A stretch of 64,000 bases of DNA, from assembly GCA_965215505.1 (NCBI GenBank), contig OZ244065.1, positions 3,936,001-4,000,000 of the forward strand, in the 5' to 3' direction. The DNA is from Capsulimonadaceae bacterium. Lineage in GTDB: Bacteria > Armatimonadota > Armatimonadia > Armatimonadales > Capsulimonadaceae. The stretch's first letter is position 1; every line of letters begins with the position of its first letter. This document shows, one piece after another, positions 33,696 to 46,799 of the stretch. Under the pieces are notes generated by a model. It was not told the DNA's origin, did not search any database, and was given only the letters and a program-made list of their open reading frames with translations. Position numbers and translations under genes: made by a program.

Positions 33696-34094
33696 ATGCC
33701 CCGCGCCCCCGGCGATTATCTCAACCCACGCGAACAGCAGATCATGGAGGCCGCCTTCCGGCGCGGGCGCGTCACCGCCGCCGATTTGGAAGAACTCCTG
33801 CCGGGTCGGCCCAGCAACTCCACCGTCCGCACCCTCCTCCGCATCTTGGAAAGCCGGGGCCACCTGACGCACGTCGAGGAGGAAGGCCGCTTCGTCTACC
33901 TCCCGGTCCTGCCCCGTGCCAATGCCGCCCGGTCGGCTTTAGACGGCGTCCTGCACACCTTCTTTGAGGACTCGGTGGAACAGGCCTTCGCCGCCCTGCT
34001 CTCCGCCCGCGAGTCCCGCCTGACGCCCGATGACCTGGACCGGCTCTCCGAGATGATCCAGCGCGCCCGCGACGGTCAGGAGGACCAGCCATGA
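33696..34094 (+). CDS. BlaI/MecI/CopY family repressor
   Basis: LNPREQQIM, STVRTLLRILE.RG, FVY.P, TFFEDS; coupled to an M56 gene. Confidence 0.92.
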   Translation: MPRAPGDYLNPREQQIMEAAFRRGRVTAADLEELLPGRPSNSTVRTLLRILESRGHLTHVEEEGRFVYLPVLPRANAARSALDGVLHTFFEDSVEQAFAALLSARESRLTPDDLDRLSEMIQRARDGQEDQP

Positions 34095-36382
34095 GCGCCC
34101 CGGTGTTCGTCGCCTGGCTCGTCCTCCTGCGCGACCTGTCGGTCAAGGGCGCATTTCTCCTGCTGGCCGCCTGGGCGCTGACATTCGCGATGCGCCAGGC
34201 CCCCGCCGCCGCCCGTCATCTGGCCTGGCTGCTGACGTTCGCCGGCCTGCTCCTCCTGCCCCTGCTGTCCGTGACACTGCCTGCCCGTCCCATCGCCGTC
34301 CTGCCCGCGCCCGCCGCGCCGGTCGTTCTTCCATCTCCGGTCGCAATGCCGTCCGTTGCCGAGCCGCCCGCTGCCGTTGAAGCCCCGGCCTCTATCGTTC
34401 CCGACCAGCGGCCTGCGCCGCCCCTGCCTGCCCGCATCCGCCCGGCCCGTACCTTGCCGATCCGCGCACTGCCTCCGGCACCGCCCGACTTGCCCGCGCT
34501 CCTCTGCTGCCTCTGGCTGCTAGGCGTCGCGCTGGCCGTGCTTCCCCTGGCCGCCGGGTGGACACTCGCCGCGCGGCGGCTGCGGCGCTGCTCCCCCATC
34601 ACCGACCGGGCCACGCTCGCCCTGGCCGCTGAGGCTGGACGCCGACTCGGCCTCCGCCGCCCCGTCTCCCTCCGCTCCGGCCCTTCGGTGTCCGTGCCCG
34701 TGACGTTCGGGCTGGTGCGCCCCGTCATCCTGCTGCCGGACGGGGCCGCGTCCTGGCCCGCCGAGCGCCTGCGCGTCGCCCTGCTGCACGAGCTGGCCCA
34801 CATCCATCGCGGCGATTGGGCGACGCAGACGGCGGCCCGACTAGTATGCGCCCTCTTCTGGCATAACCCCCTGGTCTGGCCCGCCGCCCGGATGCTCCGG
34901 GCCGAGGCCGAGCGCGCCTGCGACGACCTGGTCCTCTCATCCGGCATCCCCGCCCTCGACTACGCCCAGCACCTGCTCGCCGTCGCCGCCGCCCTCTCGG
35001 GGGCTGACCGCCCCTTGCCCCTGGCCGTCCCGATGGCCGGGCTTGGACCGCTGGAATCGCGCCTGCGCGCCGTGCTCACCGCCCGCCCCCGCCTCGCCCC
35101 GAGCCGCCGCGTTGCTGTTGTGGCCTTCGTCTTGGCTCTCGGTGTCCTGATCCCGCTTGCCGTCCTGCGCCCCGCCGCCCGCGCTGCGCGCCGGATTGCA
35201 GCGCCATTGACGCTTGTGCCCGTCGTTCTGCCCGCCCCGCCGGAGGCCGTGCGGCCTTCTCCCGTACCCCTTAGCGCGCCCGCCGCCCCACCCGCACCCT
35301 TTCTCACCAAACCCACACCGACAGGAGTTCCGCCCATGAAGCCGCTCACGCCCGTCAAAGCCGTCGCCTTGGCCGCGCTCGCCGCCACCCTGGCACTCCC
35401 CGTCGCAAAGGCCCAGTCGCCCAACTTGCCGGCCAGTGTTCCCGCTGCGTCTGCCCCTGTTGCGTCTGCCCCTGTTGCGTCTGCCCCTGTTGCGTCTGCC
35501 CCTTCCACACCACTGGCTGTATCTGTGCCCCCCAGTGTCGGTGCGTTCCCAATCAGCCTCGCTGTCAATCAAGCGTCCATGCGGGATGTTTTGGCAACGA
35601 TGTTCAAGCAGGAACATCTAGACTACATCATCGATCAGAGCGTCTCCGGCACCGTGAGCCTGCATCTGAATGGTGTCCCTTTTGATGTAGCCCTGACCAC
35701 TCTCCTGAAGGCGAGCTCCCAGCCTCTGGAGTACACTGTTCGAGGCGGCGTTTACCACATCCAGCCCCGCGTCGCGGCGGCTGGTGCCAAGGAGGCGGTG
35801 CCTGCTACCCCGCGTCAAGTGCAGATCAAGTTCGAGTGGGTTTCCTCGGCAAGCACCCCCAACGCCGCCCCGGACAAGAACGTGGAGGTCCTGACAATTA
35901 TTGCCGAGGAGGGCCGCACGACTCAGGCCAGCAGCCGACACATGCGGGACGGGGTGGGTGGCGAAGAAACCATCAGCGTTTTAGCCCACCTGAAGCCGGG
36001 CGGGGTGGTGACCCTGGACATCACGGAACACAGCACCATGACGGCCAAATCGGCCGGAGCGGTGTCCAGTGTTAACCAAACGATGGTGAGCTTCAAGGAT
36101 GGAGAAACGAGATCGATAAGCAGCTCGATTCTAGGTTCCAAGCAGGTCGGGCAGAGCATGGAGCGGATGCTGTTCGTGACGCCTACGATTATCCAGCCTC
36201 CTGCCGATGGTTCCGCTGAGCCTCGTCCCGCGCCTCCCCAAACCGGAGGTGCAACGCCCCAGAACCCGGACATTATTACGCTTGATGCTCGCATCGCCGA
36301 GGTGCAGCGGAGACTAATAGTATCCGTGATGAAGCCGATGATTCGGAAGCGAGTCAGCCCCGCGCCGGGCAAGACCCCCTAG
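34091..36382 (+). CDS. BlaR1-like M56 metallopeptidase with Pro-rich linker and secretin/STN-like C-terminal domains
   Basis: AARH..W, P.TFG..RP.ILLP, LLHELAHI.RGD, WHNPLVW, E.ACDD, YAQHLL; C-terminal RDVL...SVSGTVSLHLNGVPFDVAL. Confidence 0.9.
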   Translation: MSAPVFVAWLVLLRDLSVKGAFLLLAAWALTFAMRQAPAAARHLAWLLTFAGLLLLPLLSVTLPARPIAVLPAPAAPVVLPSPVAMPSVAEPPAAVEAPASIVPDQRPAPPLPARIRPARTLPIRALPPAPPDLPALLCCLWLLGVALAVLPLAAGWTLAARRLRRCSPITDRATLALAAEAGRRLGLRRPVSLRSGPSVSVPVTFGLVRPVILLPDGAASWPAERLRVALLHELAHIHRGDWATQTAARLVCALFWHNPLVWPAARMLRAEAERACDDLVLSSGIPALDYAQHLLAVAAALSGADRPLPLAVPMAGLGPLESRLRAVLTARPRLAPSRRVAVVAFVLALGVLIPLAVLRPAARAARRIAAPLTLVPVVLPAPPEAVRPSPVPLSAPAAPPAPFLTKPTPTGVPPMKPLTPVKAVALAALAATLALPVAKAQSPNLPASVPAASAPVASAPVASAPVASAPSTPLAVSVPPSVGAFPISLAVNQASMRDVLATMFKQEHLDYIIDQSVSGTVSLHLNGVPFDVALTTLLKASSQPLEYTVRGGVYHIQPRVAAAGAKEAVPATPRQVQIKFEWVSSASTPNAAPDKNVEVLTIIAEEGRTTQASSRHMRDGVGGEETISVLAHLKPGGVVTLDITEHSTMTAKSAGAVSSVNQTMVSFKDGETRSISSSILGSKQVGQSMERMLFVTPTIIQPPADGSAEPRPAPPQTGGATPQNPDIITLDARIAEVQRRLIVSVMKPMIRKRVSPAPGKTP
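35447..35503 (+). repeat. 15 bp tandem repeat x~4 (ASAPV)
   Basis: gcgtctgcccctgtt three times plus a partial copy, in frame. Confidence 0.9.
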
Positions 36383-36573: not shown

Positions 36574-37677
36574 TCACTCCTCCCCCTCCCTGCCCTCCGC
36601 CTTGTATTTGAGCTGCCCCAGCACGCAGTCGCCGGCCTCGATGTCGTCGCGCTCCGTCAGATACGTCGCCTGGTAGAGCGAGCCGCCTTTGTAGGCGTAC
36701 AGGTAGCGGATTTCAACGAGGGCACCGGCGGCAGGGATGGCCTTGTTCGGGGGGATGGTGACATTTCCCACATTGACAGGCTTCCCTGCGTCGTCCAAAA
36801 GGTGCAGGCGGATGCTGCGCTGGTCGTTCTGGGCCGTGACAAGGCAGGTGCAGGTGGCGTAGAACTTGCACTTGACCTGGGAGCCGCCCGAGGCGGGCCG
36901 CCCGGCGATGTATTGGCCGTCCGCCTTTTTGAACACGACCCCCTCGCCGCCCGACGCCGCGATGCGGTCGTAGAGCGCCCGCTTGCCGTCCGCGTCCCAG
37001 GCGGTCTCGGCGACGACGAGGGCCGGGGTGGGGGAGGCGAGGACGGCGGCGCGGAGGGCGTCGTAACGCTCCCGGTAGGGATGCGTGCGGCAGTCGGTCT
37101 CGCCCGATTTCAGCAGGTCGAAGACGACGTAAGCATCGCCGAGCAGTTCGCCGTCCAGCTCGCCGTCCGGCAGGGCGGCGAGCGCGTCGCTGATCTCCTG
37201 GGTTAGCGGGACGCACAGCCCCTTGCGGTTGGAGCCGGCCGGGACGCCGCCGCTGACGGCGACCATGATGCGCCGCCCATCGAACTTCTCCTGGAGGCAC
37301 CAGGCCGGGTCCGCCAGCAGTGCTTCGGCGGCCTCCTCCCCGATGGAGTTGAGGAGCTGCGGGTGCAGGCCGGACCGGCGGCCTTCCAAGTCGGTCAGGG
37401 CGAACAATGCGCCGGTGCCGTCAGGCGTGTAGCCTTTGGCGGTCTTCTCGGCCAGCAGCTTGTCATAGATCTGTTGCGCCTTCTCCCAGGCGACCGGCGT
37501 GGTGGTCTTCGTCCCGGCCGTCATCGCGCTCCCGCGCCGCCCGAAGGCGAACGTGACGGTGAAGCCGTCGCCGACGGCGTTGATGTTGGCATGATAGACT
37601 TTGTCGGAGCCGCCGTCGCGGTAGAAAAGGCGAGCGCTCGGCAGGGGGTCAGGGATAGCTTCCGTGGGTGGCGTCAT
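36574..37677 (-). CDS. WGR domain + ATP-dependent DNA ligase
   Basis: RBS AAGGAG; WGR-like SDKVY...AFGRRG...EKTAKGY; ligase motifs QEKFDG, LDGEL, VFDLL, EGVVFK, K.K; OB-like tail VEIRY. Confidence 0.88.
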   Translation of the reverse strand: MTPPTEAIPDPLPSARLFYRDGGSDKVYHANINAVGDGFTVTFAFGRRGSAMTAGTKTTTPVAWEKAQQIYDKLLAEKTAKGYTPDGTGALFALTDLEGRRSGLHPQLLNSIGEEAAEALLADPAWCLQEKFDGRRIMVAVSGGVPAGSNRKGLCVPLTQEISDALAALPDGELDGELLGDAYVVFDLLKSGETDCRTHPYRERYDALRAAVLASPTPALVVAETAWDADGKRALYDRIAASGGEGVVFKKADGQYIAGRPASGGSQVKCKFYATCTCLVTAQNDQRSIRLHLLDDAGKPVNVGNVTIPPNKAIPAAGALVEIRYLYAYKGGSLYQATYLTERDDIEAGDCVLGQLKYKAEGREGEE

Positions 37678-38762: not shown

Positions 38763-40139
38763 CTATCGCAGCCAGTGCAGCAGGACGGAGGCCAGGCTGA
38801 GGAAGATGCTGATGCCGATGACGTCCTGGAAGGCCGTCTCGAACGGCCCCGCCGTCAGGGCCGGGTCGAAGCCGGCCCGCTTGGACAGGAGCGGGACGCA
38901 CGTCCCGACGACGCCCGCGATGTTGACCGAGGCGAACATGCCCAGGAACACGACCAGCCCGAAAGCCCAGTGCTTGTCCCAGATGCCGCCGATGAGGCCG
39001 ATGGTGGCGGCGCACGCCCCGCCCAGAATCAGCGTGGTCGTCATCTGCCGGCCCACGGCGTGACGCCAGTGGGAGAGCTGCACCTGCCCGCTGGACAGGC
39101 CGCGGATGATGATGGCCGCCGACTGCAAGCCCGTGTTGCCGCTGATGGCCGAGATGATCGGCATGAAACTCGCCAGCAGGATGAACTTGGTCAGCGTCGC
39201 ATCGAAAACGTGGATGACCACCCCCGCCCCCAGCTCGATGAACAGCGTCGCCAGTATCCAGGGCAGGCGCAGCTTGGCGATCTGGAGGGGCGACTTCCGC
39301 TCCAGCTCCTCGGCGTCCGACCCGACCGAGCGCAGATAATCCTCGTTGAACTCCTCGACCAGCACGTCCATGATGTCGTCCACGGTGACGATCCCCAGCA
39401 TCCGCCCCGCCGCGTCCGTGACCGGCAGTGTCAGCCGGTCGTAACGCGAGATCAGCAGGGCCGCCTCCTGCTGGTCGGTCTCGGGGCGGACCGAGATCGG
39501 CTCGGCCGCCATCAGGTCGCGAATCTGGGTCAGCGGGGCCGCCGTCAGGACATGGCGGAGGGGGATGACGCCGCACAGCCGCCGGCCCTCGTCCAGCGCG
39601 TAGATCTCGTTAATCGTCTCCAGATCGTCCGCATGCCGGCGCAGATACTCCAGAGTCTGGCTGGCCGTCGCGCTGAGCGGGATGGCGGCGAACTTGTCGG
39701 TCATCAGCCGGCCCGCCGACCCCTCCGCATAGGACAGCAGCTTGCGGACCTCGGCGGCGTCCTCGGGCGCGCGCGCCGTCAGGTCGGCCATCAGCGCCTC
39801 CGCCTGGTCCGGCCCGGCCTCGGAGACCACCTCGGCGGCGTCGTCCATCGGCAGGTGATCCAGCAGCTCCGCGATCCGGCCCGAGGGCGCGTTGCTGGTC
39901 AGGAACTTCACCGTCTCCGCGTCCAGCTCGTCCAGCACCTCGGCGGCCCGCTCATTGTCCAGCCAGTTGAAGACGGCCAGGGCTTCGGGCGGAGACATCG
40001 CATCCATCGCCTCGACGATGTCGGCGGGGTGACGCCCCGCTAGGGCCGCCGTCAGGCGCACGTCGCCGCCGCCGCCCAGCGGCTTCCGCAAGGCCGCTCT
40101 CAGGTTCTCCGCCAGTGACTGGCGCTCGGTCTGTGGCAT
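38763..40139 (-). CDS. mgtE: Magnesium transporter MgtE
   Basis: HPADI, SAGRLMT, CBS pair, GIVTVDD, RLPW, GNTGLQS, DPAL.AGPF...QDV.G. Confidence 0.95.
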   Translation of the reverse strand: MPQTERQSLAENLRAALRKPLGGGGDVRLTAALAGRHPADIVEAMDAMSPPEALAVFNWLDNERAAEVLDELDAETVKFLTSNAPSGRIAELLDHLPMDDAAEVVSEAGPDQAEALMADLTARAPEDAAEVRKLLSYAEGSAGRLMTDKFAAIPLSATASQTLEYLRRHADDLETINEIYALDEGRRLCGVIPLRHVLTAAPLTQIRDLMAAEPISVRPETDQQEAALLISRYDRLTLPVTDAAGRMLGIVTVDDIMDVLVEEFNEDYLRSVGSDAEELERKSPLQIAKLRLPWILATLFIELGAGVVIHVFDATLTKFILLASFMPIISAISGNTGLQSAAIIIRGLSSGQVQLSHWRHAVGRQMTTTLILGGACAATIGLIGGIWDKHWAFGLVVFLGMFASVNIAGVVGTCVPLLSKRAGFDPALTAGPFETAFQDVIGISIFLSLASVLLHWLR

Positions 40140-40206: not shown

Positions 40207-40270
40207 AAAGTGTAAATAGTACGTTTTCTTTGGTTTTCCGGGTATAGTGTTAACGTAAATAAAACACTAT
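40207..40270 (+). promoter_or_regulatory. Two NrtR-like 21 bp operators flanking a -10 box
   Basis: AAAGTGT-N7-ACGTTTT (40207-40227) and TTAACGT-N7-ACACTAT (40250-40270); TATAGT at 40243; upstream of NAD-salvage genes. Confidence 0.65.
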
Positions 40271-40288: not shown

Positions 40289-41083
40289 ATGCAGGTAGAA
40301 CTACTCATCATTGACCCACAAATAGACTTCTGCGACCCGTCAGGCGCGCTCTACGTCCCCGGCGCGGAAGGGGACACGGCCCGGCTCGCCCGCATGGTCC
40401 GGCGGCTTGCCCCGAAGCTCGACGACATCCACGTCACGCTGGACTCGCACCATTTCGTGGACATCGCGCACCCGATCTTCTGGAAGGACACGGCGGGCAA
40501 CCACCCCGCGCCCTTCACCATCCTGAGCGCCCCGGACGTCGAGGCGGGCCGGTGGACCACGACGCAGCCCGGCGCGTACAAGCGCGCACTGGCCTATGTG
40601 CAGGCATTAGAAAAGCACGGCCGCTACCCGCTCTGCATCTGGCCGCCGCATTGCCTGATCGGCAGCGCGGGCCACGCCGTCATGCCGGACCTGTTCGCCG
40701 CCCTAGCCGAGTGGGAGCAGCGCTTCGCGGTCGTGGACTATGTCACCAAGGGCAGCAACATCTGGACCGAGCATTACTCGGCCATCCAGGCGGACGTCCC
40801 CGACCCCGCCGACCCCAGCACGCAGATCAACACGGCCCTGATCCAGACCTTGATGAAGGCAGACATGGTCGTCGTGGCGGGCGAGGCCGGGAGCCACTGC
40901 GTCGCCAACACCGTCCGCGATGTCGCCAACAACTTCGGCGACGACAGCCTGGTTTCCAAAATCACCCTGCTGACCGACGCCACCAGCCCCGTGCCGGGCT
41001 TCGAGTTGTTCCAGGATGATTTCCTGCGCGAGATGACCGGGCGCGGCATGAAGCTGTCCACGACGACGGATTTTTTGGCGTGA
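40289..41083 (+). CDS. pncA: Nicotinamidase / isochorismatase-family hydrolase
   Basis: IDPQIDF, LDSH, WPPHC, TKG, GEAGSHCV; in the same operon as pncB. Confidence 0.8.
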   Translation: MQVELLIIDPQIDFCDPSGALYVPGAEGDTARLARMVRRLAPKLDDIHVTLDSHHFVDIAHPIFWKDTAGNHPAPFTILSAPDVEAGRWTTTQPGAYKRALAYVQALEKHGRYPLCIWPPHCLIGSAGHAVMPDLFAALAEWEQRFAVVDYVTKGSNIWTEHYSAIQADVPDPADPSTQINTALIQTLMKADMVVVAGEAGSHCVANTVRDVANNFGDDSLVSKITLLTDATSPVPGFELFQDDFLREMTGRGMKLSTTTDFLA

Positions 41084-41092
41084 GGCAGGCTG

Positions 41093-41221
41093 CACGGGGC
41101 TGAACCCCCATGCTGTAGAAGTGCAAGCCCTCGCCTTCGCGGGCGAAGACATTCCTCTTTGCCTCTTCTGCCCGCGAAGGCGGGGAGTTGCTTTCCCGAA
41201 GCACGGGGGTTCAGCCCCGTG
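41093..41221. repeat. MITE/REP-like element family A
   Basis: cacggggctgaacccc...gggggttcagccccgtg. Confidence 0.85.
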
Positions 41222-41247
41222 GCACACACCCGAAAGGAACCAAGACC

Positions 41248-41994
41248 ATGCCACTCCTGATGACCACCGACGGTCTCCGCCAGGCGGCACTGCCGACCAG
41301 CGGGTACGGCTACTCGGCCACCCGGCTCGACGACCTGGGGGCCGCCGAGTACACCCTCGTCTCCATCGTGTGCGATGCCAGCGGCAGCGTCGCCGCCTTC
41401 CGGGGCGAACTGGAGCAGGCCTTGAAGAGCATCGTCCAGGCCTGCCGCCTCAGCCCGCGCGCCGACAACCTCCTGCTGCGGCTGGTTTCGTTCGACGACA
41501 CCCTGAAGGAGCTGCACGGGTTCAAGCTGCTGGAACGGTGTAACCTCGCCGACTACGACGGCGTCCTGCGGGCCGGCGGCACGACCGCCCTCTACGATGC
41601 CGCCGAGAATGCCGTCAGCGCCACGACCGACTACGCCCGGCGTCTCGGCGCGAGCGACTTCGCCGCCAACGCCCTCGTGTTCGTCCTGACCGACGGCATG
41701 GACAACGCCTCCACGCTGACCGCGCGGAACGTCAAGGCGGCGCTGGGGCGGGCCGTCGCCGAGGAGGCCCTGGAGTCCTTCCTGTCGGTCCTGATTGGCG
41801 TCAACGTCGCAGGCCGGGCGGTCGGCGGCTACTTGCAGGACTTCAAGACGGACGTCGGCTTCACGCAGTACGTCGAGATCGGCAAGGCCGACGCCAAAAC
41901 GCTGTCGAGGCTGGCCGACTTCGTCTCGCGCAGCATCAGCGCCCAGAGCAAGTCCCTCGGCACCGGCGGCGGCTCGGCCTCGCTGACGTTTTAG
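41248..41994 (+). CDS. vWA domain protein (TerY/YegL-like)
   Basis: MIDAS DASGS, GGTTALYDA, VLTDG; RBS AAAGGA. Confidence 0.88.
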   Translation: MPLLMTTDGLRQAALPTSGYGYSATRLDDLGAAEYTLVSIVCDASGSVAAFRGELEQALKSIVQACRLSPRADNLLLRLVSFDDTLKELHGFKLLERCNLADYDGVLRAGGTTALYDAAENAVSATTDYARRLGASDFAANALVFVLTDGMDNASTLTARNVKAALGRAVAEEALESFLSVLIGVNVAGRAVGGYLQDFKTDVGFTQYVEIGKADAKTLSRLADFVSRSISAQSKSLGTGGGSASLTF

Positions 41995-42010
41995 GGAAGG
42001 CAGCGGGGCC

Positions 42011-42844
42011 ATGAACAGCGACTGTGCGTTCGCCATCGGCAGGACCCACCGCGTGTGCCAGGACTATGCCGTCGCCGGCACGGGGGCTGGGGGCGGAAGT
42101 GCCTTCGTCCTCCTGGCCGACGGCTGCTCCTCCTCGCCCGACTCGGACGTCGGGGCGCGGCTGCTGGTCAAGGCGGCTCAGTGCCTCCGGCCCGGCCCGT
42201 CCGCCACTGCCGCCGAGTGGGACGCTTATCACGAGGCGGCTGTTCGCCGCGCCGCCGGGGCGGCTCAAAGCCTGGACCTGCGCCCGGACTGCCTGGACGC
42301 GACCCTGCTGACCCTCACGGCGGCGGGCGGCGCGTTCGCGGCCTGCTGTCATGGGGATGGCGTGGTCGCATTGGGGCGGCATGACGGGCGGCTTGAGGTC
42401 CATGCCGTCTCCTACGCGGCCTCCTACCCCGGCTATCCCTCCTACCGGCTGGACACGGCCCGGCAGTGCCAGTGGGAGGCGCAGCCGGGCAACGAGAAGC
42501 GCGTGACGCGCTGGGTGCTGGGCGAAGACGGCGCGGCGGAAGAAACCGCCTGCCTCAGCCACCGCCCTTACGAACTTTGGGCGGGCACCGCGGACGAGTA
42601 CCGTTTCGCCGCCGTCCTCAGCGACGGCGTCCAGTCCTTCACCGAGACGTGCGAGACGGACACCTCCCGGTCGCCGCGCTCCGTCCCCCTGGCCGAAACT
42701 CTGCCCTCCCTGCTCGCCTTCAAGGGCAGCCGGGGCCAGTTCGTCCAGCGCCGCGTCACGGCCTTCTTCAAAGACTGCGCCGCGCGCCGCCGACAGCACG
42801 GCGACGACTTTTCGCTTGGCGTGGTGTGGCTGGAACCTTCGTAG
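42011..42844 (+). CDS. PP2C-like protein phosphatase (TerY-P/YegK-like)
   Basis: G.TH.VCQD, LADGCSSS..SDVGA, ATLL, HGDG, LSDG, DDFS. Confidence 0.88.
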   Translation: MNSDCAFAIGRTHRVCQDYAVAGTGAGGGSAFVLLADGCSSSPDSDVGARLLVKAAQCLRPGPSATAAEWDAYHEAAVRRAAGAAQSLDLRPDCLDATLLTLTAAGGAFAACCHGDGVVALGRHDGRLEVHAVSYAASYPGYPSYRLDTARQCQWEAQPGNEKRVTRWVLGEDGAAEETACLSHRPYELWAGTADEYRFAAVLSDGVQSFTETCETDTSRSPRSVPLAETLPSLLAFKGSRGQFVQRRVTAFFKDCAARRRQHGDDFSLGVVWLEPS

Positions 42845-42864
42845 GGGCGCCGCTTGCCGCGCCC
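42841..42864 (+). repeat. GTAG-type REP
   Basis: gtaggggcgccgcttgccgcgccc; its TAG is the PP2C stop codon. Confidence 0.7.
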
Positions 42865-42899
42865 CCTACACAGAATAGCGGCGATCAGGAGACAACCCG

Positions 42900-44564
42900 A
42901 TGGACGTGTATGTACAAGGGAGAAAAGTGCGGCTCACCCAGGCCGAGTTCAAGGCGCAGGGCGGGCAGGGCGCGGTCTACGTCAAGGACAAGACCGCCTA
43001 CAAGATCTACGCCGACCCGGCCCAGATGATCCCGTCCGCCAAGATCGCCGCCCTGTCCGCGCTGACCCTGCCGGACATCATCCGGCCCCAGGACGTACTC
43101 CTGGACGCCCGCCGCGCCCCAATCGGCTACACCATGCCCAGCGTGGCTGATGGAATCGTGCTGTGCCAGACGTTTCCCAAGACGTTCCGCCAGCGCGAAG
43201 GTCTAACGCCCGATCTTACGCTCGGCCTGGTGCGCCGGCTTCAAGAAGGCGTCGCGCACGTCCACGCGCAGGGTATTCTCATCGTGGACCTGAACGAGAT
43301 GAACTTCCTCGTAGACCCCGCCTTCGGGCGCGTCTACTTCCTGGATGTGGACAGCTACCAGACGCCCGGCTTCGCCGCCACCGCCCTAATGGAGAGCGTC
43401 CGGGACCGGCACGCGGCGGCCTGGAACGAGGGCACGGACTGGTTCTCGTTCGCCGTCGTCTCGTTCCAGATGTTCGTCGGCATCCACCCCTACAAGGGCA
43501 AGCATCCCACTTTGAAGACCCTGGACGAGCGCATGGCGCACAACGTCTCCGTCCTGAACCCGGACGTGTCCGTCCCCGCCGCCTGCCTGCCCTTCGACGT
43601 CATCCCGCATTGCTGGCGCGACTGGTATCACGCCGTTTTAGACTGCGGCCAGCGCCTCCCGCCCCCACGCGACTTGGTCGCCGCCGTCATCGCGCTGCCC
43701 GTGCGAGTGAACCGGCAGGCGGGCAGTGGCCTGTTCCGCATCGAGCATCGCCTGGACTGCGACGGCGCGATTATCTCCTTCACAGCGGGCGTCGTCGTGA
43801 CCACGGAGGCCGTCTACCTCAATGGCCGCCGCCATGCGGACGCCGCGCCGGGGACGAAGATCGGCCTGACGACGCCCGGCGGTCTGCCCGTCGCCGCCCG
43901 GCTGGAGAATGGCCGTGTGCATCTGCTCGACCTGACGCGCAGCCAATCCATCCCCTGCGACATCGCCGCCGAACAGCTCACGGCGGCTGAGGGCCGGCTG
44001 CACGTCAAGCATGGCGCGGCCCTGGTCGAGATCGGTTTCTTGGAGTTGCCCGGCCGCCTTCTGCCCCAGGTCAAGACCGTCGGGGCCGTCTTGGAGAACG
44101 CGACGCAGCTCTTCGAGGGCGTCGCTTTGCAAAGCCTGCTCGGGACCTGGTACGCTTCGCTCCTGGCCGCGCCGGGCCGGTGCCATCAAGTGCGGCTGGC
44201 CGAACTCGACGGCGCACAGGTTTTGGACGCCAAACTTCAAGGCGGCGTCCTGATGGTGACGGCGGCCCGCGCGGGCCGCTACGAGAAGCTGATCTTCCGG
44301 TTCGATGCCGACTACGCCTCTTATGACGTTCGCGTCGTCCCCGACATCGCCGTGACCGGCCTGAACTTCGTCGTGCTGGCCCACGGCGTCTGCCTGCACC
44401 TGAACGACCGGGACGAGCTGGAAATCTTCCCGGCCCGGAAAGGTGCGGCGGGCCTGAAGGTCATCGCCGACCCCGCATTGGGCGGCGACTGCCTGCTGCT
44501 CCACGACGGCCCACAGGCATTGCTGGCGCGCGGCGGCGCGCTGTTTGGGTTTGCGATGAAGTAG
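42900..44564 (+). CDS. Ser/Thr protein kinase (YegI-like) with beta-rich C-terminal domain
   Basis: QGGQGAVY, AYKIY, VDLNEMNFLV, LDVDS, TDWFSFAV, GIHPYKG. Confidence 0.88.
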   Translation: MDVYVQGRKVRLTQAEFKAQGGQGAVYVKDKTAYKIYADPAQMIPSAKIAALSALTLPDIIRPQDVLLDARRAPIGYTMPSVADGIVLCQTFPKTFRQREGLTPDLTLGLVRRLQEGVAHVHAQGILIVDLNEMNFLVDPAFGRVYFLDVDSYQTPGFAATALMESVRDRHAAAWNEGTDWFSFAVVSFQMFVGIHPYKGKHPTLKTLDERMAHNVSVLNPDVSVPAACLPFDVIPHCWRDWYHAVLDCGQRLPPPRDLVAAVIALPVRVNRQAGSGLFRIEHRLDCDGAIISFTAGVVVTTEAVYLNGRRHADAAPGTKIGLTTPGGLPVAARLENGRVHLLDLTRSQSIPCDIAAEQLTAAEGRLHVKHGAALVEIGFLELPGRLLPQVKTVGAVLENATQLFEGVALQSLLGTWYASLLAAPGRCHQVRLAELDGAQVLDAKLQGGVLMVTAARAGRYEKLIFRFDADYASYDVRVVPDIAVTGLNFVVLAHGVCLHLNDRDELEIFPARKGAAGLKVIADPALGGDCLLLHDGPQALLARGGALFGFAMK

Positions 44565-44569
44565 GCCTC

Positions 44570-44690
44570 GCCACGGGGCTGAACCCCCGTGCTGTAGAAG
44601 TGCAAGCCCCGAGGGTAAGGGCGAAGAATTCTGGATGTCCGCGAAGGCGGAGATTTGCTTTACCGAAGCACGGGGGTTCAGCCCCGTGGC
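44570..44690. repeat. MITE/REP-like element family A
   Basis: gccacggggctgaacccccgtgct...agcacgggggttcagccccgtggc. Confidence 0.85.
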
Positions 44691-44729
44691 AAGTGCCTCT
44701 TTCGGGTAAACTGCCTCCAAAGGAACGCC

Positions 44730-45914
44730 ATGATCATCCAATCCCTGCTAGACAGCGACCTTTACAAGCACACGATGCAACTCGTCGTCTGGAACCAGTT
44801 CCCGAACGTGCCGGTCGAATACGCCTTCCAATGCCGGACGAAGGGCGTGGACCTTTCGCCCTATGCCGACGAGATCCGCGCGGAGCTGGCCGCCTTCTGC
44901 GGCCTGCAACTGACCGAAGGCGAAGCGAAATACCTGAAAGGCATCCGGTTCCTCAAGCACGGCTACGTTGACGCGCTTGCCGACCTGCGGCTCTGTGCGG
45001 ACCATGTCACGATTACTGTCCGCCCCGATGCGCCGCCGGAGCAGCGGCTTCAGGTGCAGATCAAGGGCAACTGGTTCCAGACCATTCTGTTTGAGGTGCC
45101 GCTCCTCGCCATCATCAACGAGGTCTATTTCCGGCACACGCAGCCGGACGACGCCGCCAACCGGGCGGAGGGAATGCGGCGGCTGGAGGCCAAGATCGCC
45201 CGGCTCCAATCGGCCGACGTGCCCGTGCCGCTGATTGACTTCGGCACGCGCCGCCGCTACCGGGGGGACTGGCACCGGACCGTTGTCGCCACCCTCAAAG
45301 AACGGCTCGGGCAACAGTTTCTTGGCACAAGCAACGTCGCCCTGGCCCGCGAGCTGGGCCTAAAGCCGCACGGGACGATGGCCCATGAGTTCTTGCAGGC
45401 GTGCCAGGCGCTCGTCGCCCTGCCGGACTTCCAGCGCTTCGCCTTCGACACCTGGATGCAGGAGTATCGGGGCGACCTGGGCATCGCGCTGTCCGACGTG
45501 GTGGGTATGGATGCCTTTTTGCGCGACTTCGATAAGCTGTTCTGCAAGGCCTACGACGGCTGCCGCCACGACTCGGGCGACCCCTACGAGTGGGGCGAGA
45601 AGCTGATCAAGCACTACGAAAGCATGGGGATTGACCCGAAAACCAAGTCCGCCGTCTTCAGCGACAGTTTGGACGTGGAGAAGGCCGTCGCCCTGGCCGA
45701 GCGGTTTGAGGGGCGGCTGCGGTCGTCGTTTGGCATCGGGACGTTTTTGACCAACGACATGGGCTTCGCGCCGCTGTCCATCGTCATCAAGATGGTCCGC
45801 TGCAACGGCCGCCCCGTCGCCAAACTCAGCGACAGCCCCGGCAAGGCCATGTGCCACGATGATGTCTATCTCGCCTATCTGCGTGAGATCTTCTATTCCC
45901 AGAAAGCCGAGTGA
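44730..45914 (+). CDS. pncB: Nicotinate phosphoribosyltransferase
   Basis: SLLDSDLYK.TM, DFGTRRR, GTSNV, GTMAHE, RHDSGDP, FSDSL, FGIGT.LTND, KLSDSPGK. Confidence 0.97.
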   Translation: MIIQSLLDSDLYKHTMQLVVWNQFPNVPVEYAFQCRTKGVDLSPYADEIRAELAAFCGLQLTEGEAKYLKGIRFLKHGYVDALADLRLCADHVTITVRPDAPPEQRLQVQIKGNWFQTILFEVPLLAIINEVYFRHTQPDDAANRAEGMRRLEAKIARLQSADVPVPLIDFGTRRRYRGDWHRTVVATLKERLGQQFLGTSNVALARELGLKPHGTMAHEFLQACQALVALPDFQRFAFDTWMQEYRGDLGIALSDVVGMDAFLRDFDKLFCKAYDGCRHDSGDPYEWGEKLIKHYESMGIDPKTKSAVFSDSLDVEKAVALAERFEGRLRSSFGIGTFLTNDMGFAPLSIVIKMVRCNGRPVAKLSDSPGKAMCHDDVYLAYLREIFYSQKAE

Positions 45915-46558
45915 TGTTTATGCAGTTCGACCTACAAGGTGTGGACAAGTCCCAGGCCTACCGTCTGCTGGCGAGTGTGGTCGTCCCGCGCCCCATCGCC
46001 CTGGTCACGACAGTGGGCGCTGACGGCACCGTCAACGCCGCCCCGTTTTCCTTCTTCAACCTGCTCGGCTCCTCCCCGCCCGTCGTCGCGCTCGGCATCG
46101 CGAACCGGGACGCGGACACGCCCAAGGACACCCGCGCCAACATCGAGCGGACGGGGGAGTTCGTGGTCAACCTCGTCGGCGAGGCGCTGGCCGACGCGAT
46201 GAACGTCTGCGGCATTGACTTCCCTGAAGGCGTCAGCGAACTTGCCGCCGCCCGGCTGACGACCCTGCCGTCCGCCTCGGTGTCTGTCCCGCGCCTGGCC
46301 GAGTCCGACGTGCATCTGGAATGCCGCCTGCACTCGGTCGTCCCCATCGGCGACAACCGGATCGTGCTGGCCGAGGTCGTCCGCCTGCACGTCCGCGACG
46401 AGTTCATGGACCGGGACACCCTGCGCGTCCGCACCGAGGCCCTGCACCTGATCGGCCGGATGCACGGCGGCGGCTGGTACGCCCGCACTGCCGACCTGTT
46501 CGACCTGGCGCGCATCCCGTACAAGGAGTGGCAGGAGCAGGAGAGACGCGGTGCATAG
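45911..46558 (+). CDS. Flavin reductase-like family protein
   Basis: VVPRPIALVTT, NAAPFSFFN, KDT..NI..TGEFVVN, GRMHG..Y; overlaps the pncB stop. Confidence 0.9.
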   Translation: MMFMQFDLQGVDKSQAYRLLASVVVPRPIALVTTVGADGTVNAAPFSFFNLLGSSPPVVALGIANRDADTPKDTRANIERTGEFVVNLVGEALADAMNVCGIDFPEGVSELAAARLTTLPSASVSVPRLAESDVHLECRLHSVVPIGDNRIVLAEVVRLHVRDEFMDRDTLRVRTEALHLIGRMHGGGWYARTADLFDLARIPYKEWQEQERRGA

Positions 46559-46799
46559 GCAGGATGGTCAGTCCCGGCCATAGATGACCGGTCTAGTCCC
46601 GGCTCCGCCGGTGGGCCGCCCCTTCGGGGCTTCGGAGGGCATTGTTCGGAGGGCATTGCAGGGGCGCGATTTATCGCGTCCTCTCTTCGTATCGCGCCCT
46701 CTTCTCCCCTCTGCGCCCTTTCGAAAATCCCGAAGGGCCGGGCCACACTTTTTGATCGGTTTGCCTGTTCGGGTGTCCATTATACAGTGGGAGGCCGAA

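Follow-up and report, generated by a model that had tools for sequence, protein, structure and literature searches.

A nicotinamidase-like gene linked to a vWA, phosphatase and kinase triad with a predicted beta-propeller in a Capsulimonadaceae bacterium, other bacteria and large phages

Triads of a vWA protein, a PP2C phosphatase and a Ser/Thr kinase, known as TerY-P and represented in E. coli by YegL-PphC(YegK)-YegI, are widespread, and the accessible text of the literature offers no more than hypotheses on their input and target (PMC11090510; 10.1101/819920). Here we analyse such a triad in a 64,000-nucleotide stretch of a Capsulimonadaceae bacterium genome (contig OZ244065.1, positions 3,936,001 to 4,000,000 of the forward strand; hereafter the window, whose positions serve as coordinates below), where it follows a nicotinamidase-like gene, pncA. 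As in TerY-P, the vWA, PP2C and kinase genes are adjacent and in the same order, the metal ion-dependent adhesion site (MIDAS; DxSxS...T...D) of the vWA protein is intact, and the kinase domain is of the YegI type with atypical motifs. In contrast, the kinase ends in a predicted beta-propeller, where TerY-P kinases have a zinc ribbon or OB-fold (accessible text of PMC11090510) and YegI has two membrane helices (accessible text of 10.1101/819920). The locus further differs in its fixed partner, a predicted nicotinamidase, in its NrtR-type operators and in its frequency in large phages. No Ter or DNA restriction genes occurred among the 31 recurring neighbour families compared with Pfam, a scan that leaves rarer neighbours outside. 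Because it lacks both the zinc-ribbon or OB-fold C-terminus and the Ter/restriction context, the two defining features in the accessible text of PMC11090510, the pncA-linked triad is a variant of TerY-P and not a member.

NrtR regulons (Rodionov et al. 2008, PMC2330246) resemble the locus in their 21-bp GT-N7-AC operators before pncA-pncB. In the available parts of that source, this palindrome is the NrtR operator core and ADP-ribose lifts repression by NrtR family members; its regulon table, in contrast to our locus, contains no vWA, PP2C or kinase. The window's genome (G000) also holds an NrtR-like gene, but one lying 770 kb from pncA, inside an nrtR-NADAR-ADP-ribosylglycohydrolase cluster with the top-scoring box of the genome.

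The phage-carried NARP1-3 pathways (10.1101/2024.02.11.579819; PMC13464706) are similar in that their nicotinamide adenine dinucleotide (NAD) salvage genes could rebuild NAD from nicotinamide. As described in the accessible text, they run through ADP-ribose, amidated nicotinamide mononucleotide or nicotinamide riboside by the gene pairs Adps+Namat, Nampt+Nmnat and PnuC+NadR, with PncA outside these pathways, whereas the genes studied here would form a deamidating route accompanied by a kinase triad, and the phosphoribosyltransferase of the window is of the nicotinate type. The available main text of the NARP3 paper (PMC13464706) makes no mention of PncA, vWA or isochorismatase, nor does that of a jumbo-phage survey (PMC7824862) of TerY, PP2C or isochorismatase. 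A full-text literature search returned no description of the unit, with most subscription papers and supplements outside its reach and the 2012 Ter operon tables as a place that could contain it. A propeller assignment, the repeated loss of the triad and an Asp46/Thr153 signature in PncA are described below.

Gene content and operators of the locus

Six intact, co-directional genes lie on the + strand in the order pncA, vWA, PP2C, kinase, pncB and flavin reductase, as a sequence-only reading of the window had stated.

40207..40227, +: NrtR-type operator 1, GT-N7-AC, 21 bp (at about -80, in relatives too; ranked 5th in the genome)
40250..40270, +: NrtR-type operator 2, GT-N7-AC, 21 bp (at about -38, in relatives too; ranked 3rd in the genome)
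40289..41083, +: PncA-like protein, 264 aa (PF00857, E 5e-6; nicotinamidases are the best PDB matches, E 1e-15 with a profile)
41248..41994, +: vWA protein (TerY/YegL-like), 248 aa (intact MIDAS; Pfam matches weak and under the cut-off, E 0.007 and 0.03)
42011..42844, +: PP2C phosphatase (PphC/YegK-like), 277 aa (PF13672, E 3e-13)
42900..44564, +: YegI-type Ser/Thr kinase, 554 aa (match to PF00069 under the cut-off, E 1.5e-4; kinase fold at Z 19.5)
43719..44561, +: predicted beta-propeller domain of the kinase, residues 274-554 (model and Foldseek)
44730..45914, +: PncB, nicotinate phosphoribosyltransferase (TIGR01514, E 1e-139, above cut-off)
45911..46558, +: flavin reductase-like protein (PF01613, E 3e-29)

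The PncA-like protein has the Asp-Lys-Cys catalytic triad and Asp-His-His metal site pattern of nicotinamidases. D9, K154 and C204, which we take to be catalytic, and D52, H54 and H121, presumably the metal ligands, were invariant in 116 triad-linked and 21 triad-less alignment rows. Canonical nicotinamidases (yeast Pnc1, 2H0R; M. tuberculosis PncA, 3PL1) share the isochorismatase-family sequence and the same catalytic and metal-site pattern. The window protein exceeds them in length by approximately 50-80 residues, has an insertion that falls between profile positions 68 and 115, and scores below the cut-off of the NCBIfam nicotinamidase model NF008623 (27.9 vs 174 bits). All but one of its six solved-structure matches are named nicotinamidase. 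Inspection by eye, without scoring, located the nicotinamidase metal motif in none of the four other isochorismatase-family proteins of the genome. This protein represents a divergent subfamily whose function is likely that of PncA. PncB is the sole PF04095 match in the genome, which also carries a gene for NadA of de novo synthesis.

In the vWA protein, the MIDAS consists of D43-x-S45-x-S47, T113 and D149; D43, S47, T113 and D149 were present in 116 of 116 rows, while position 45 was Ser or Thr. Its Ser-rich C-terminal tail is conserved at S227, S229, S231, S234 and S243. The start codon is an ATG after AAGGA, an alternative upstream TTG falling within a hairpin repeat. The PP2C protein has invariant metal-site aspartates (D37-G38, D205, D265-D266). 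Profile comparison linked the kinase to YegI (probability 98.8, E 9e-17), the phosphatase to PphC (probability 92.7) and, weakly, the vWA protein to YegL (probability 46, E 2e-4), in support of the TerY-P-like identity proposed earlier. The vWA profile gave no match below E 0.3 against solved structures, and an Atlas feature search on the homologue P0011 gave no usable match.

The kinase domain spans residues 1-260 with K35, D130, N135 and D149-V-D-S152; K35 was found in 145 of 146 rows and D130, N135 and D149 in all 146. Its motifs are of the YegI type, VDxNxxN and DxDS, without HRD and with DxDS in place of DFG. D149-x-D-S152 is the counterpart of the YegI DSDS motif, whose last Ser, equivalent to S152, is an essential autophosphorylation site according to the accessible text of 10.1101/819920. 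Taken together, the residues conserved in PncA, vWA, PP2C and kinase make all four proteins look active. None of the four has an obvious membrane segment.

The full-length kinase model reached a pLDDT score (predicted local distance difference test) of 95.9, with a Hanks-type N-terminal domain (Z 19.5). The C-terminal 281 residues were modelled alone because kinase matches swamped the fold search with the whole protein, and this model (pLDDT 96.7) matched beta-propellers over its whole length, among them WD40 proteins (Foldseek, E 3e-6) and VIA (Z 15.1, root-mean-square deviation 3.8, 249 aligned residues). Propeller matches were tied near Z 13-15, with no family standing out. The kinase C-terminus is thus predicted to be one beta-propeller. 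The earlier description of this region as a beta domain agrees with the model; its description as unrecognised is superseded by the propeller fold.

The two boxes before pncA, previously called NrtR-like, hold positions kept in relatives and rank 3rd and 5th genome-wide with a matrix built from 17 boxes of nine relatives, the window and its nearest relative being left out, and scored on the 6.18-Mb genome. A box scoring at least 12 preceded pncA in 16 of 51 other bacterial loci, compared with 0.26 in shuffles, and a high-scoring box did so in only 1 of 63 viral loci. The NrtR-like gene at G000 3202211-3202942 matched a neighbour profile (E 6e-78) whose family carries PF21906 NrtR_WHD; in its cluster (G000 C1 3199918-3202942, -), nrtR and NADAR lie on either side of the genome's top box. 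The pncA-triad locus is likely a member of the NrtR regulon. A sigma-70 promoter scan found none. The second-ranked box (G000 C1 5188251) precedes an unannotated 248-aa open reading frame (5187383-5188129, -) that starts with Cys-x-x-Cys and is a possible further regulon member.

Distribution of the four-gene unit

The kinase family comprised 942 clusters at E <= 1e-30. We analysed 165 kinase loci, drawn from 8 of 12 initial stretches, at least 77 genome matches and the top 80 among 172 viral ones; removal of 14 near-duplicates and of loci with less than 3.5 kb upstream left 66 bacterial and 67 viral loci. PncA was present in 57 of the bacterial and 64 of the viral loci, vWA in 57 and 65, and both together in 57 and 64, respectively; PP2C occurred in 51 and 66. 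PncB (21/66 and 29/67) and Nudix/NrtR genes (27/66 and 23/67) were less frequent. The linkage to NAD genes noted in the window is thus kept elsewhere. Among the matches listed, the record titles of the bacterial loci named Armatimonadota, Acidobacteria, Myxococcota, Patescibacteria, Proteobacteria and Clostridia.

The position of pncB varied. It directly followed the kinase in 7 of 22 bacterial loci with all three genes and was inserted within the pncA-vWA-PP2C-kinase unit in 11 viral loci. What stays constant is the unit pncA-vWA-PP2C-kinase, with pncB often nearby but in shifting positions; the placement of the triad between pncA and pncB, as first read, holds for the order in the window and not as a constant arrangement. 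The flavin reductase, originally counted in the set, matched in 0 of the 165 kinase loci and was seen only in the relatives G011 and G012. It is a local passenger outside the system.

Among the nine bacterial loci without PncA, four had no propeller match and five were lone propeller kinases. The latter (L032, L056, L057, L058 and L066) also have no PP2C upstream, and four of them have VDGNE, not VDLNE; the L057 kinase is followed by nrtR-like and Nudix genes. Loci of a pncA-vWA-kinase type without PP2C (L041, L050, L055, L062, L063 and L064; G102, G138, G152 and G193) belong mostly to Myxococcota, usually with an nrtR-like gene adjoining. In a sister PncA subfamily of approximately 340 aa, the order is PP2C-kinase-PncA-vWA in L307 (G191) and L318 (G412); there and in L315 (G224), the kinase has no propeller-profile match. 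A 732-aa protein with an N-terminal S-adenosylmethionine methyltransferase domain is encoded near the kinase in L044 (8843-11041) and in eight further bacterial loci.

At least 172 viral stretches encode the kinase, and the family is common in large phage contigs. Two records of uncultured phages, 485 and 595 kb long, encode the kinase in full length, the 595-kb one with pncA, vWA and PP2C upstream. Atlas clusters with the kinase propeller were 66-79% viral. A search seeded with PncA recovered 79 viral loci (not de-duplicated) with vWA in 74, PP2C in 73 and kinase in 73, and is partly circular since its profile came from triad-linked proteins. PncA, PncB and NadE occurred together in 21 of 67 viral loci, 13 of which also had a NadD-like gene and hence a full deamidating NAD route. 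Near the viral units (L105-L184), genes for RNA and tRNA repair recurred, with Thg1 encoded in 10 of 67 loci, RtcB in 6 and KptA in 3; NADAR was encoded in 8 and a full-length NrtR-like protein in 10.

Loss of the triad and a signature in PncA

Of 41 genomes chosen without regard to the kinase (G000 and 40 relatives), 33 encode PncA, 31 encode PncB and 13 encode the kinase, a count that leaves out one weak match (E 1e-4). In G012 the window context (mgtE, pncA, pncB and flavin reductase) is kept and the triad is cleanly absent, while G011, a draft assembly of 740 contigs, has only PP2C and kinase fragments and no vWA. The vWA profile matched in none of five triad-less genomes, a search that included no positive genome. 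PncA (E < 1e-100) was found in 8 of 150 Myxococcota genomes besides the seed, with the kinase adjoining in 6 of these. Among 200 genomes of the phylum of G042 it was found in the seed only, 20 having the longer sister subfamily, which is mostly triad-less. A quick IQ-TREE analysis nested all triad-less rows, with five changes, and a FastTree tree rooted on the sister subfamily gave eight triad-less lineages, three near the base. We therefore dropped the idea that the triad is ancestral to the whole PncA family; the recent triad losses alone are secure.

Two PncA positions set triad-linked and triad-less proteins apart:

40424..40426, +: PncA Asp46 (Asp in 107 of 128 triad-linked rows vs 2 of 21 triad-less)
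40745..40747, +: PncA Thr153, beside catalytic Lys154 (Thr in 104 of 128 triad-linked rows vs 4 of 21 triad-less)

In parsimony counts over 149 rows and 245 columns, with the G011 remnant dropped, Asp46 and Thr153 were the two most relaxed of all columns on triad-less branches. With both positions named beforehand, we then compared a sample of new rows, from which two duplicates and the sister subfamily were left out. All six new triad-linked rows have Asp46 and five of them have Thr153; none of the four new triad-less rows has either residue. Of 105 conserved columns, only five (46, 153, 156, 216 and 224) were lost throughout these four triad-less rows. Residue 153 is only T, V, S, A or N in triad-linked proteins and mostly R, E, Q, P or L in triad-less ones, G010 and G037 being triad-less genomes that keep Thr153. 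The tendency to lose Asp46 and Thr153 with retention of the catalytic residues points to PncA itself as the partner of the triad. Thr153 is a candidate docking or phosphorylation site, and the residues tolerated there fit better with a docking surface needing a small residue than with an obligatory phosphosite.

The triad is flanked by two copies of a hairpin repeat, which we take to be REP/BIME-like:

41093..41221: hairpin repeat copy 1 (-97.9 kcal/mol, z -10.4)
44567..44693: hairpin repeat copy 2 (oriented like copy 1)

These stretches of approximately 130 nt belong to a family of 37 matching stretches in the G000 genome, approximately 120-190 nt long with fixed ends and a variable centre, with a further copy at 27.9 kb (G000 3963938) and others in G012. 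Their folding is very stable (z -8 to -10), and Rfam gave 0 matches at the gathering score. Since the family is genome-wide, we rejected the repeats as ends of a mobile cassette. They could alter mRNA stability along the operon. Recombination from repeat to repeat is a possible cause of the triad loss in G012, where one repeat lies at the junction, but the comparison that would support it is limited, as G022 and G011 are not aligned across copy 1, nor G011 across most of copy 2. Joints between both repeats in contigs of four of 22 runs were not counted because the genome has many copies of the repeat and the sides of the joints are short.

Other features of the region include a short GTAG-type palindrome between PP2C and kinase (42841-42869; the pattern matches 17 times genome-wide, counting both strands) and a third family of repeats that follows the flavin reductase gene (46586-46645; 69 genome copies). 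The operators lie between pncA and a divergent magnesium transporter gene, mgtE (38763-40139, -), as they do in G012. Further away are a WGR domain fused to an ATP-dependent ligase-like domain (36577-37665, -), kept in G012, and a BlaI-type repressor with a BlaR1/M56 peptidase bearing an STN domain (33696-36382, +).

Proposed mechanism and its alternatives

The reading we favour, at about even confidence, is that the triad is an optional phosphorylation switch, docking on the nicotinamidase to gate, under NAD stress, the initial reaction of nicotinamide salvage. We infer every biochemical step of it from gene content, conservation, active-site motifs, operators, the predicted propeller fold and the loss of the triad with PncA and PncB kept. 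Breakdown of NAD would yield ADP-ribose, which would lift repression by NrtR, and enzyme and switch would therefore be made together. Contact with PncA, on a surface including Asp46 and Thr153, would be made by the vWA protein or by the propeller of the kinase. Targets of the kinase would be the Ser-rich tail of the vWA protein and possibly Thr153/Ser156 of PncA, next to catalytic Lys154, with PP2C reversing this phosphorylation. Large phages would run their own deamidating NAD route with the same four-gene unit. A complex prediction for vWA and PncA scored 0.00 against a mark of 0.32, which is evidence neither for nor against contact.

Several observations weigh against such a switch. In the first set of rows, Asp46 and Thr153 reached p ~4e-4 each, which is not significant after correction over 245 columns, and the four new triad-less rows represent only two lineages. 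Thr153 is kept in two of eight triad-less lineages and in two of nine members of a third. At position 153, V, A or N stands in for Thr in 16 of the 128 triad-linked PncAs, some of which have no Ser/Thr at 156 either; Thr153 is therefore not a universal phosphosite. Six of the 57 bacterial loci with pncA have no PP2C and keep intact kinase motifs, which strains the idea of a strict on/off pair, and the five lone propeller kinases have neither pncA nor vWA upstream. Finally, the pncA-pncB pair persists without the triad, 17 of 21 triad-less pncA genes lying near pncB and 14 directly before it.

It is possible, if clearly less probable, that PncA is instead the sensor of a nicotinamide burst from an NADase, which the vWA protein relays to a kinase that phosphorylates other targets caught by the propeller, with growth arrest as the output in bacteria and host takeover or counter-defence in phages. 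PncA is tied more tightly to the triad than to pncB (64 vs 29 of 67 viral loci), and the Asp46/Thr153 docking signature fits a sensor too. Beta-propellers are general binding platforms, and the viral share of the propeller clusters (66-79%) points the same way, as does the L057 kinase, which adjoins nrtR-like and Nudix genes without an upstream pncA. However, the catalytic set of PncA is complete and PncA stays beside pncB after triad loss, and the recurring neighbour families contain no conserved extra effector gene.

The anti-phage defence role put forward in the sequence-only reading is not supported. As a TerY-P-type anti-phage or anti-toxin module, the triad would use the NAD operon for induction or guard PncA as bait. 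Homology to TerY-P triads and patchy presence in close relatives, as for defence genes, agree with this view, as do occasional ADP-ribosylglycohydrolase and NADAR neighbours; a TerY-P-like module with an OB-fold kinase has been reported as a stand-alone defence system (accessible text of PMC11090510). In contrast, no PADLOC triad model matched, vWA and PP2C having no match and the kinase only generic ones (E >= 1e-4), and a propeller replaces the zinc ribbon or OB-fold. The genes that recur nearby serve NAD metabolism or RNA repair, not defence, the GC content matches that of the flanks, and the kinase is found in at least 172 viral stretches. We consider a defence module unlikely.

Equally improbable in our estimation is mere co-regulation, in which the triad shares NrtR induction with pncA and acts on unrelated substrates without contact. 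The repeated loss of the triad with pncA-pncB intact agrees with this, as does the variable position of PncB. Nevertheless, adjacency to pncA persists across phyla and in phages although a high-scoring box precedes pncA in just 1 of 63 viral loci, and PncA residues shift when the triad is lost. Lastly, it is very unlikely that the PncA-like protein acts as a cysteine hydrolase on some other amide, with an incidental NAD link. Its score far under the NCBIfam cut-off and its length beyond the 180-235 aa of solved nicotinamidases agree with this reading. They are set against structure matches that are nearly all nicotinamidases, a place immediately ahead of pncB in 14 of the 21 loci without the triad, and four other isochorismatase-family proteins that by eye have no nicotinamidase metal motif.

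Returning to the docking switch, its broadest form is a tentative proposal, in which we place distinctly less confidence than in the switch itself. The locus would be an undescribed NAD-stress system whose nicotinamidase is both the enzyme and the input of a vWA-phosphatase-kinase/propeller switch through Asp46/Thr153. The version in giant phages, with PncB, NadD and NadE, would be a fourth, deamidating and phosphorylation-controlled way of rebuilding NAD after host NADase defences.

For TerY-P-like triads, this variant names a likely partner, the nicotinamidase, together with candidate residues: Asp46, Thr153 and Ser156 of PncA, the Ser-rich vWA tail and Ser152 of the kinase. As the four proteins have no obvious membrane segment, the question can be tested with purified proteins, and triad-plus and triad-minus relatives offer a ready natural comparison. 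If the switch is real, post-translational control would be added to bacterial nicotinamide salvage, and large phages would gain a deamidating NAD route outside NARP1-3.

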